DNA from: a virus
Lineage: Duplodnaviria > Heunggongvirae > Uroviricota > Caudoviricetes
Virus record (IMG/VR): IMGVR_UViG_2879765931_000003
DNA length: 33,073 bases
Direction: 5' to 3' (one strand)
Below, one piece after another: positions 9,731 to 12,294 of this stretch. The notes under the pieces are model-generated. The model made no database searches and was not told where the DNA came from. It saw only the letters and a list, made by a program, of their open reading frames with translations. Every line of letters begins with the position of its first letter. Position 1 is the first letter of the stretch. A program made the position numbers and the translations under genes.

Positions 9731-10035
9731 TGACCACTTTTACCGACAAAGAACTGATTAAAGAAATTAAAGAGCGTATCAGCAGCCTTGACGTGCGAGA
9801 CGATATTGAGCGCCGTGCTTATGAAATCGCACTCCTATCTCTGGAAGTAGAACCAGATGAACGCGAAGCTTATGAATTATTCATGGAAAAGCGTTTTGGT
9901 GACTTAGTAGATCGTCGGAGAGCAAAAAACGGCGATAACGAATACATGGCATGGGATATGACTCTCGGTTGGATCGTCTGGCAGCAACGAGCTGGTATCC
10001 ATTTCTCAACAATGTCACAGCAAGAGGTGAAATAA
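9730..10035 (+). CDS. Hypothetical phage early (ea-region) protein
   Basis: 101-aa ORF, start overlaps the upstream stop (TAATG), same direction as xis and int. Confidence 0.45.
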   Translation: MTTFTDKELIKEIKERISSLDVRDDIERRAYEIALLSLEVEPDEREAYELFMEKRFGDLVDRRRAKNGDNEYMAWDMTLGWIVWQQRAGIHFSTMSQQEVK

Positions 10036-10092
10036 TGGAGCCATACAGCCTCACACTCGATGAGGCCTGTCATTTTCTCAAGATTGAAGTGG

Positions 10093-10931
10093 TCAACAAA
10101 AACTGGCCACCGAGTTAGAGTTTTTCCAGTATCGATTTTCCGATTCGTTTGGGGGTAACCCACCGTTATATTCGTGCGGTCTTAGTGCACTGTAATATCC
10201 AACGATATAGTCCGTTATGGCGTGAGCTGCCTCGCTGAAGCTTACGTAACCCACCACCGGCATCCATTCGTTCTTCAGACTCCTGAAGAAGCGTTCCATT
10301 GGGCTGTTATCCCAGCAGTTTCCGCGCCGGCTCATACTCTGTCTGATCTGGTATCGCCACAATAACTGCCGGAACTGCCTGCTCGTATAATGACTGCCCT
10401 GATCGCTGTGGAACATCACCCCGCCGGGCTTACCACGGGTTTCCCATGCCATTTCCAGCGCTTTCATGGTGAGCCTGCTGTCCGGCGAGAACGACATGGC
10501 CCAGCCCACTGGTTTTCTTGCGAACAGGTCGAGAACAACGGCGAGGTACGCCCAGCGCTTACCCGTCCAGATATAGGTCACATCACCGCACCACACCTGA
10601 TTTGGCTCGGTCACGGCGAACTGCCTTTCAAGGTAGTTAGGGATAGCAACATGTTCATGACCACCACGTTTATACCGGTGAGTCGGCTGCTGACAGCTGA
10701 CCAGCCCCAGCTCTTTCATGAGCCTGCCAGCAAGCCAGCGTCCCATCTGGTAGCCTCCCGGGTTGCCATTGTGGCGATGCTTCTTGCTCCGGCCGAACCG
10801 TGGCTGATGCCATGTAGCTCAAGTACCTGACTGCGTAATACAGCCCGTCTGCCGTCTGGTTTTTCAGGACGGTTTTTCCAGTATCTGTAGCTGCTGCGAT
10901 GAACCCCGAACACATGGCAGAGTGTGACCAC
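10093..10931 (-). pseudogene. IS911 OrfB transposase with a 1-nt deletion relative to copy 2
   Basis: Copy 1 has cccgggagg where copy 2 has cccggagagg; the ORF splits into 71-aa and 217-aa pieces. Confidence 0.8.
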
Positions 10932-10957
10932 AGGATAATGCGCTCTGAGTTTCCCGA

Positions 10958-11296
10958 TTATCGAGAACTGTTCAGGGAGTCTGACATCAAGAGCGCGGTA
11001 GCCTTTTTTAATATTTCATTCTCCATTTCAATGCGTTGTAGCTTTTTCCTGAGCTCACGGATTTCAATTTGTTCCGGGGTAATGGGGGAGGCTTTTGGTG
11101 TTTTGCCCTGACGCTCATCACGCAGTTGTTTGACCCATCTTGTCATTGTGGAAAGGCCAACATCCATAGCTTTGGCGGCATCTGCCACCGTGTATTTCTG
11201 GTCAACAACCAGTTGAGCGGATTCGCGTTTAAACTCTGCGCTAAAATTTCTTTTTTTCATTGGAGCACCTGTGTTGTTCTGAGGTGAGCATATCAC
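10958..11296 (-). CDS. IS911 OrfA
   Basis: [50 protein letters not shown]...; the ORF as listed carries an upstream in-frame extension. Confidence 0.85.
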
Positions 11297-12294
11297 CTCT
11301 GTTCAGGTGGCCAAATTCAGTGTGCCACTTCAGATATCCAGACCGACTGCCATTAACTGGATACGCACAGGGCGTCTTCAGGCAACACGCAAAGATCCCA
11401 CTAAGAATAAATCTCCTTACCTCACAACACGACAAGCCTGCATTGCGGCTCTTCAGTCTCCGCTGCATACTGTCCAGGTGAGCGCGGGTGATGGCATAAC
11501 AGAGGAAAGAAAATGTCACTCTTCCGCAGAGGTGAAATATGGTACGCCAGTTTCACATTGCCGAACGGTAAAAGATTTAAACAGTCTCTTGGAACAAAGG
11601 ACAAAAGGCAGGCGACAGAACTCCATGACAAGCTAAAGGCTGAAGCATGGCGGGTCAGCAAACTTGGTGAAATACCTGATATAACGTTCGAGGAAGCGTG
11701 TGTCAGGTGGCTTGAAGAGAAAGCACATAAAAAATCACTGGACGATGACAAAAGCCGGATCGGATTCTGGCTTCAACATTTCGCAGGAATACAACTAAGA
11801 GACATTACTGAATCAAAAATTTATTCAGCAATGCAGAAAATGACGAACCGGCGTCATGAGGAAAACTGGAAACTCAGGGCAGAATCATGCAGAAAAAAAG
11901 GGAAACCTGTTCCAGAATACACGCCAAAACCAGCGTCCGTTGCAACGAAGGCTACGCATCTTTCATTTATAAAGGCCCTACTAAGAGCCGCAGAGCGTGA
12001 ATGGAAAATGCTGGATAAGGCACCAATTATTAAAGTGCCTCAACCAAAGAATAAACGGATCCGCTGGCTGGAGCCCCATGAAGCACAAAGGCTGATTGAT
12101 GAATGTCCGGAGCCATTAAAGTCTGTTGTTGAATTTGCACTGGCAACAGGCTTAAGACGCTCGAACATCATCAACCTTGAATGGCAACAAATAGATATGC
12201 AGCGCCGGGTGGCATGGATAAACCCGGAAGTGAGGTAGCCTGAGTTTAACGGACACTCCTTCCTGAAATAGAATGGCATCAGAAGGAGCTAATA

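Follow-up and report, generated by a model that had tools for sequence, protein, structure and literature searches.

Do an IS911 insertion in an excisionase gene and an IS600 insertion in the adjacent integrase gene mean that a prophage has been locked in its host chromosome, or did the two insertion sequence (IS) elements strike a module that was already decaying? This question is raised by a 33,073-nucleotide stretch of DNA, IMG/VR virus record IMGVR_UViG_2879765931_000003 (hereinafter the window, which refers to the whole stretch that was analyzed). A preliminary description of this DNA had proposed that IS911 disrupted the excisionase gene (xis), that IS600 disrupted the integrase gene (int) and that the prophage was thereby fixed in place. 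The comparative analysis described here indicates that, very probably, IS911 is a simple insertion in the already functionless P22/SfIV-type xis gene of a single Shigella flexneri lineage, located within a decayed prophage remnant, and that this insertion was a late and probably neutral event.

Across positions 1513-22238, the window matches S. flexneri CP026871.1 with 100% identity. In the sister chromosomes, this block is located between proB-proA-thrW and adrA-proC-aroL, that is, in the classical S. flexneri serotype-conversion locus (proA-thrW...adrA). The sequences compared included the S. flexneri assemblies L003, L005 (UGYU01000001.1), L006, L007, L009 and L010 and the phages SfIV (L001), SfII (L002), SfV, SfI and P22 (BK000583). 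The sister genomes were viewed as 20-kb stretches, and the integration and inversion history discussed below was rebuilt from these stretches together with the 33-kb window.

Insertion of IS911 into the xis gene

The IS911 copy occupies positions 10085-11332 (1248 bp), with the transposase encoded on the minus strand, and is recognized by its termini (TGAAGTGG.../...CCACTTCA) and by its DNA sequence, which is 99.0% identical over the full length to Escherichia coli copies annotated as 'IS3-like element IS911 family transposase'. When the two ends are read at greater length (TGAAGTGGTCAAC... and ...GTGCCACTTCA), the termini pair as inverted repeats; these repeats are imperfect, with agreement over the first 8 nucleotides (nt) and then again at GGCCACC. 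The element is flanked by the trinucleotide GAT at 10082-10084 on the left and at 11333-11335 on the right, and these are assigned as the two copies of the target-site duplication on the basis of the single GAT in the empty sites described below.

The insertion point lies past the second base of xis codon 17, within the predicted helix-turn-helix. The 5' fragment of xis (10035-10084, plus strand) comprises codons 1-16 and two bases of codon 17 and, as it stands, reads into IS911 to yield a 27-amino-acid (aa) product; the 3' fragment (11336-11636, plus strand) begins with the final base of codon 17 and runs as far as the stop codon at 11634-11636. Deletion of 10085-11335, that is, of the IS together with one GAT, restores a 116-aa open reading frame (ORF) from the ATG at 10035 to this stop codon. 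The resulting join, ...CTCAAGAT|ATCCAGACC..., is exactly the one quoted in the preliminary description, so the proposal that the xis frame can be rejoined stands; the deletion of 10085-11334 (1250 bp) that accompanied it is one base short and leaves the frameshift in place.

The xis site is unbroken (...CATTTTCTCAAGATATCCAGACCGAC...) in five of the S. flexneri assemblies (L003, L005, L006, L009 and L010) and in the phages SfIV and SfII. All seven natural empty sites contain a single GAT and are letter-for-letter identical to the in silico join. A 3-bp repeat alone is weak evidence of transposition, and it is these natural empty sites that are decisive: to judge from the compared sequences, the insertion of IS911 is beyond chance, and the originally suggested simple insertion with a GAT duplication is borne out.

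Within this IS911 copy, orfA is uninterrupted (minus strand, ATG at about 11263, stop at 10958), and the A6G slippery motif, AAAAAAG, can be read on the same strand at 11003-11009. In orfB, the frame is shifted by the loss of 1 nt at IS position 576 (window position about 10757) and, because of this frameshift, the copy probably lacks a full OrfAB transposase and is non-autonomous. Compared to the second IS911 copy in the window (30232-31480) and to the copy in L005, it shows no substitutions and only this one 1-nt deletion.

These two other copies have histories of their own. The second copy in the window is 1249 bp long and has an intact orfB; it is not flanked by a target duplication (GGG on one side and TTG on the other), and these flanks imply that it took part in a deletion or rearrangement. 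In L005, IS911 (11257-12510) is nested within the IS600 that splits int (TTC duplication), with IS1 nearby and xis intact, which represents an independent strike of IS911 on the same dead module.

Identity of the restored excisionase

The restored Xis protein aligns without gaps to the annotated Xis of phage P22, with 101 of the 116 residues identical (87%). It matches PHROG 2907 'excisionase' along its entire length (residues 1-116, 1.1e-50) and Pfam HTH_17 with 35.1 bits, above the gathering cutoff of 27 bits; the score with TIGR01764 'excise', 25.8 bits, falls slightly under the cutoff of 28.8 bits. These similarities agree with the earlier assignment of the rejoined ORF to the excisionases, and the ORF is predicted to encode a genuine P22-type excisionase. 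A single-sequence AlphaFold2 model of the restored protein had a mean predicted local distance difference test (pLDDT) score of 46.7 and was unusable for assessing the winged-helix fold named in the preliminary description, and a PDB sequence search with the restored protein returned chance-level matches only (E above 0.04).

The gene context of xis is that of P22 as well. The 3' end of xis overlaps the start of int (11513) by 124 nt, in agreement with the overlap mentioned in the preliminary description, and the P22 annotation contains the identical overlap. The 116-aa ORF has a Shine-Dalgarno sequence, AGAGGTG, and its ATG shares the sequence TAATG with the stop codon of the ORF before it. 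The SfIV and SfII records place the xis start farther upstream in the same frame (L001 4908-5351, 147 aa, and L002 4917-5351, 144 aa, respectively), so that the annotated gene overlaps the ORF before it; the P22 and SfI records use the 116-aa start.

The int gene and its IS600 insertion

The IS600 copy in int (12231-13493, 1263 bp, plus strand) is 99.5% identical to annotated IS600, has intact orfA and orfB and is bounded by the AAG target duplication at 12228-12230 and 13494-13496, precisely as previously proposed. It falls after the first base of int codon 240 and has the junction sequence CCCGGAAGTGAGGTAGCC. The 5' fragment of int (11513-12230, plus strand) contains codons 1-239 plus one base, and its called product is 241 aa long, with the IS-encoded VR and a stop codon at the end; the 3' fragment (13497-13942, plus strand) encodes the HxxR motif FHDLRHTW (residues 313-320) and the tyrosine region RRYAH (residues 347-351). 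Compared to the other three IS600 copies in the window, this copy carries 9 private substitutions and a 1-nt deletion.

With the IS600 removed, the restored Int is 387 aa long, is identical to P22 Int in 344 of the 387 residues (89%, full length) and contains the Phage_integrase catalytic domain (6.5e-48). In the gene as it stands, the catalytic residues are split, with RR215-216 on the N-terminal fragment and HDLRH (314-318) and Y349 on the C-terminal fragment; the R...HxxR...Y residues that a tyrosine integrase requires in one polypeptide are thus distributed between two.

The preliminary description had proposed removing both IS copies in silico and aligning the product to P22-like xis-int modules. 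The doubly restored 1452-bp xis-int-att sequence yields a single, gap-free, colinear alignment to the Sf phages and to P22, with the DNA identity of 99.4% to SfIV, 98.6% to SfV, 98.5% to SfII, 97.1% to SfI and 80.5% to P22.

Relative ages of the two insertions

The two insertions differ sharply in their distribution. The truncated 241-aa Int product is encoded on at least 20 contigs, 4 of which are complete chromosomes, and most of the carriers of int::IS600, these 4 chromosomes among them, keep an intact xis. L007 carries this int::IS600 immediately adjacent to a complete thrW beside proA, an arrangement that looks like the end of the ancestral prophage. By contrast, the fusion ORF created by xis::IS911 (junction sequence CATTTTCTCAAGATTGAAGTGGTC) was found on only 1 contig in the indexed collection. 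A scan of the GTDB representative genomes for the exact xis::IS911 junction found none, which is weak evidence and is the expected outcome if few Shigella are represented in that set. Neither insertion was found to have been reported before at this locus in the library of papers that was searched.

The sequences of the elements point in the same direction, given the 9 private substitutions of the IS600 copy in int and the absence of any in the IS911 copy in xis. Thus, int::IS600 is old and widely shared, and xis::IS911 is late and strain-specific. Because int::IS600 is common to many genomes with an intact xis, Int was already dead when IS911 arrived, and because Int is needed for any excision, the hit in xis adds nothing functionally.

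The prophage remnant and the surrounding attachment sites

Of the phage to which xis and int belonged, only four genes survive, in the order DUF551-orf-xis-int (9353-13942). The first two are small phage early ORFs (9353-10035, plus strand), one encoding a DUF551 protein (125 aa) and the other a 101-aa product, with the stop codon of the latter overlapping the xis ATG in the TAATG sequence mentioned above. The left boundary of the remnant is an IS3-family element (8123-9429, plus strand) that, from its OrfA sequence, we take to be IS629-like; the PGAP annotation of this element is 'IS3 family transposase' with an ALIL pseudoknot.

Next to int lies a thrW-type attachment (att) core (13958-14002, minus strand), which consists of the 3' 45 nt of tRNA-Thr; there is no complete tRNA here. 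The sequence past this core is neither the 5' half of thrW, as is the case in L007, nor the P arm of SfIV, SfII or P22, and is instead a phage P arm of the HK542/SfX type (14003-14215), 97.8% identical to HK542/mEp213/SfX-type phages up to about position 14215. This arm is followed by a gene for an oacB-type O-antigen acyltransferase (14291-15463, plus strand; 390 aa, Acyl_transf_3; PMC4159516, PMC5596473) and a C-terminal fragment of a P22-like tailspike (15517-16140, minus strand). The oacB gene and the tailspike 3' fragment are 91.5% identical to phage Sf101 over 2 kb and have the same arrangement. Farther to the right, a truncated IS600 (16224-17408, minus strand) abuts a second IS629-like element (17407-18712, minus strand), which is inverted relative to the left copy and forms the right boundary of the oacB structure. 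On either side, the oacB block is enclosed by an IS629-like copy with an IS600 next to it, the two IS629-like copies being in inverted orientation. In both IS629-like copies, orfB is split into ORFs of 118 aa and 222 aa, and both look defective.

A second att core (6397-6441, plus strand) is inverted relative to the core at 13958-14002. To its left is the gtrA P arm of SfI, within a region (2234-6460) that is 99.9% identical to SfI, and to its right, joined at the core, is the 3' end of an HK542/SfX-type int (6442-6815, 99% identity), which is cut by an IS600 at 6816-8079. We considered the DNA to the right of this core as the chromosomal sequence downstream of thrW; its match to the 3' end of the HK542/SfX-type int rules this out. 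The left end of the window (1-966) corresponds to nt 199-1164 of an SfIV/SfI-type int that, in L006, directly follows thrW; thrW itself lies immediately to the left of the window (L006 5496-5571). Altogether, three thrW-type int genes (two of the SfIV/SfI type and one of the HK542/SfX type) are found within 14 kb, each abutting an IS600 at a different position. A target duplication is present only at the third of these genes (11513-13942), and the other two int-IS600 junctions are recombinant.

ARAGORN detected no tRNA in the window, and no partner att site in direct orientation was found flanking the xis-int remnant. An excisable prophage would be expected to show a coherent genome and an attL with a complete tRNA and an attR, in direct orientation; what the locus contains instead is the oacB structure, with oacB between IS elements in the region from proA-thrW to adrA. 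The same block adjoins adrA in L003, L005 and L006, and adjoins proA-thrW in L006.

To the right of the second IS629-like element, the window carries P22-like late genes (18784-30232), namely, those for gp16, gp20, gp7, gp14, gp26, gp10, gp4, coat, scaffold and portal proteins, which are 97% identical to Escherichia phage APC_JM3.2 and phage IME10. Only the IS pair interrupts the colinear arrangement of this late-gene block, the tailspike fragment and oacB; the sister genomes lack the block and have adrA in this place. The portal gene is split into ORFs of 105 aa and 558 aa, and its 5' end is cut by the second IS911 copy. At its right end (31845-33073), the window contains a further, minus-strand IS3-family element with a 121-aa orfA product and a 301-aa orfB product, the sizes of which suggest that it is presumably IS2. 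In the left part of the window, gtrI (3392-4913, minus strand) contains one extra T at 4032 compared to SfI and L003, and the 506-aa serotype-1 glucosyltransferase is broken into ORFs of 319 aa and 245 aa. This strain may not express the type I antigen, or else the extra T may be an assembly indel.

Reconstructed history of the locus and alternative explanations

Under the scenario we favor, IS911 transposed by the ordinary IS3-family route, generating a 3-bp duplication, into xis codon 17. The partner int had been split by IS600 much earlier, and of the prophage that owned both genes there remained just four, which now lie beside oacB in an IS-bracketed 'transposon-like structure', inverted relative to thrW. 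The preceding events can be envisaged as four steps. First, thrW would have received an SfIV-like prophage, into whose int IS600 then jumped, as is still visible in L007; next, a P22-like phage carrying oacB, with int and attP of the SfX type, would have integrated at thrW, followed by SfI; and finally, IS600- and IS629-mediated deletions together with an inversion would have flipped the oacB-att-int-xis segment. The sequence comparisons establish how the insertion is built, its empty sites, the homologies, which of the two hits is the older and the hybrid arms of the att sites; the order in which the phages integrated, the inversion and the neutral character of the xis insertion are what we infer here, and they are offered as a reconstruction.

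The two att cores bear on this history. An SfX-type P arm lies across the core at 13958-14002 from an SfIV-type int, and an SfI P arm lies across the core at 6397-6441 from an SfX-type int, so the first core is a hybrid site and the second its reciprocal. Because successive Int-mediated integrations into one thrW site produce reciprocal hybrids, these junctions point to serial integration, and the colinearity of the late genes with the tailspike fragment and oacB lends support to the same history. A single phage that contributed xis, int, attP, oacB and the tailspike gene in vegetative order is a less parsimonious source, given that the P arm is of the SfX type and int of the SfIV type and that a reciprocal hybrid is present at the other core.

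A more far-reaching reading is that the locus records three serial thrW integrations, that all three int genes were later cut by IS600, and that the SfI/gtrI remnant could still be excised by Int and Xis from a superinfecting phage of the SfI, SfII, SfV or SfX type, which would open a way to serotype switching; we regard this as possible but rather doubtful. The SfI remnant (int', IS600, a tail-fibre assembly gene and gtrI-gtrB-gtrA; window 1-6441) lies between the directly repeated thrW and the core at 6397-6441, and Int and Xis provided in trans might still excise it.

Several points weigh against the scenario of a late, neutral insertion into a dead module. The predicted other end of the inversion is not seen in the 33-kb window or in the 20-kb views of the sister genomes. 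The neutrality of the xis hit is assumed, and a free Xis could, in principle, act together with the Int of a superinfecting phage of the SfI, SfII, SfV or SfX type. The count of one assembly for xis::IS911 depends on the content of the indexed collection and on uniform gene calling, and an assembly error may account for the nucleotide missing from IS911.

The proposal that an excisable prophage was immobilized by IS911 in xis and IS600 in int, such that the pair of hits fixes the element, seems quite improbable. It does account for the disruption of both genes, and the presence of int::IS600 at a genuine thrW junction in L007 suggests that IS600 may once have grounded the ancestral prophage. 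However, the att site beside int is flanked on each side by a phage arm and lacks a partner, just four genes of the owning phage are left, int was dead long before xis was hit, and related Shigella phages would be able to supply Int and Xis of the same specificity in trans. The claim of the preliminary description that the two IS hits lock the prophage in place is therefore not sustained: there is no coherent prophage, there is no partner att, and int had been inactivated before xis. Such locking may have been brought about by int::IS600 at the stage of the ancestral prophage, but the idea fits neither xis::IS911 nor the present element. Given that Int and Xis could be supplied in trans, excision of the oacB block would be prevented by the absence of a usable att pair rather than by the loss of its own genes. 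The same description counted xis and int as 'both recombination-directionality genes', which requires correction because Int is the recombinase and only Xis is a recombination-directionality factor.

Alternatively, xis::IS911 could have been selected, if the loss of an expressed Xis blocked its use by superinfecting thrW-type phages, or att interference, and so stabilized gtrI and oacB. The retention of an intact xis in many lineages after the death of int, which means that the gene may have been expressed, and the persistence at the locus of att sites usable by a trans-acting Int are compatible with such selection. Nevertheless, the confinement of the insertion to one assembly is a pattern of drift; IS911 and IS600 are both multicopy elements in Shigella genomes, and the window alone contains at least 9 IS copies; and gtrI is frameshifted in this strain, so that no protective selection is visible. 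We consider this explanation very improbable. Misassembly of repeats that placed IS911 into xis is the least credible of the alternatives, indeed extremely improbable: the insertion is seen in one assembly only and the genome is IS-rich, but the target duplication is a perfect 3 bp, the IS ends are exact, the copy has a private 1-nt difference from the other IS911 in the window, and misassembly does not create target duplications.

Late insertion of IS911 into the xis gene of a decayed remnant thus is the preferred reading, and xis::IS911 is an instance of a known process, ordinary genome decay. IS911, IS600, the P22-type xis and int, the oacB structure and the cryptic SfI region have all been described already; the xis::IS911 allele appears to be strain-specific and, as such, is a marker useful for typing the lineage. 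The xis and int pseudogenes of this locus are best annotated as IS-split copies of known P22/SfIV-type genes. What keeps oacB and gtrI stable at this locus is the wholesale IS-driven decay of stacked prophages and not the two hits, and the hybrid att sites illustrate serial lysogeny at one tRNA gene, which is already accepted for the serotype-converting phages of Shigella. Beyond such bookkeeping, the allele is of little importance.

Comparison with known systems

As a member of the IS3 family, the IS911 copy in xis shares with typical IS911 the ends, orfA, the A6G motif, the 3-bp target duplication and 99% sequence identity. It differs in its length of 1248 bp, compared to 1250 bp for the reference IS911 (X17613, at the length cited in PMC4924310), and in the frameshift of orfB caused by the 1-nt deletion.

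The restored xis-int-att module has the same composition as the xis-int-attP module of P22 and its versions in SfIV, SfII, SfV and SfI, with a 116-aa Xis, a 387-aa Int and an att core derived from the 3' end of thrW; the modules of the Sf phages are 97-99% identical to it at the DNA level. In contrast to the P22 and Sf phage modules, both genes are interrupted here and the module is not located at a prophage end. Furthermore, the P arm past the core is of the HK542/SfX type, whereas P22 and SfII have a gtrA-linked arm.

Phage Sf101, the oacB donor, shares the arrangement of oacB and the tailspike gene with this locus but has another integrase and uses sbcB as its attachment site (PMC4159516), in contrast to the thrW-type att to which oacB is joined in the window. 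Wang et al. 2014, whose work is quoted in PMC4159516 and PMC4206707, located oacB upstream of adrA, within a 'transposon-like structure', in S. flexneri serotypes 1a, 1b, 2a, 5a and Y. The structure shared by the window with L003, L005 and L006 has the order IS - DUF551 - orf - xis - int::IS600 - att - oacB - tailspike' - IS, and the window differs from these genomes by the extra IS911 in xis, by the frameshifted gtrI and by the presence of P22-like late genes instead of adrA past the right IS.

Finally, in strain Y394, a cryptic SfI region lies in proA-adrA, with oacB 6.8 kb from gtrA (PMC5596473). In the window, the spacing between the end of gtrA (6195) and the start of oacB (14291) is 8.1 kb, or 6.85 kb without IS911, so that subtraction of IS911 brings the gtrA-oacB distance to that of the cryptic SfI/gtrI region of Y394.

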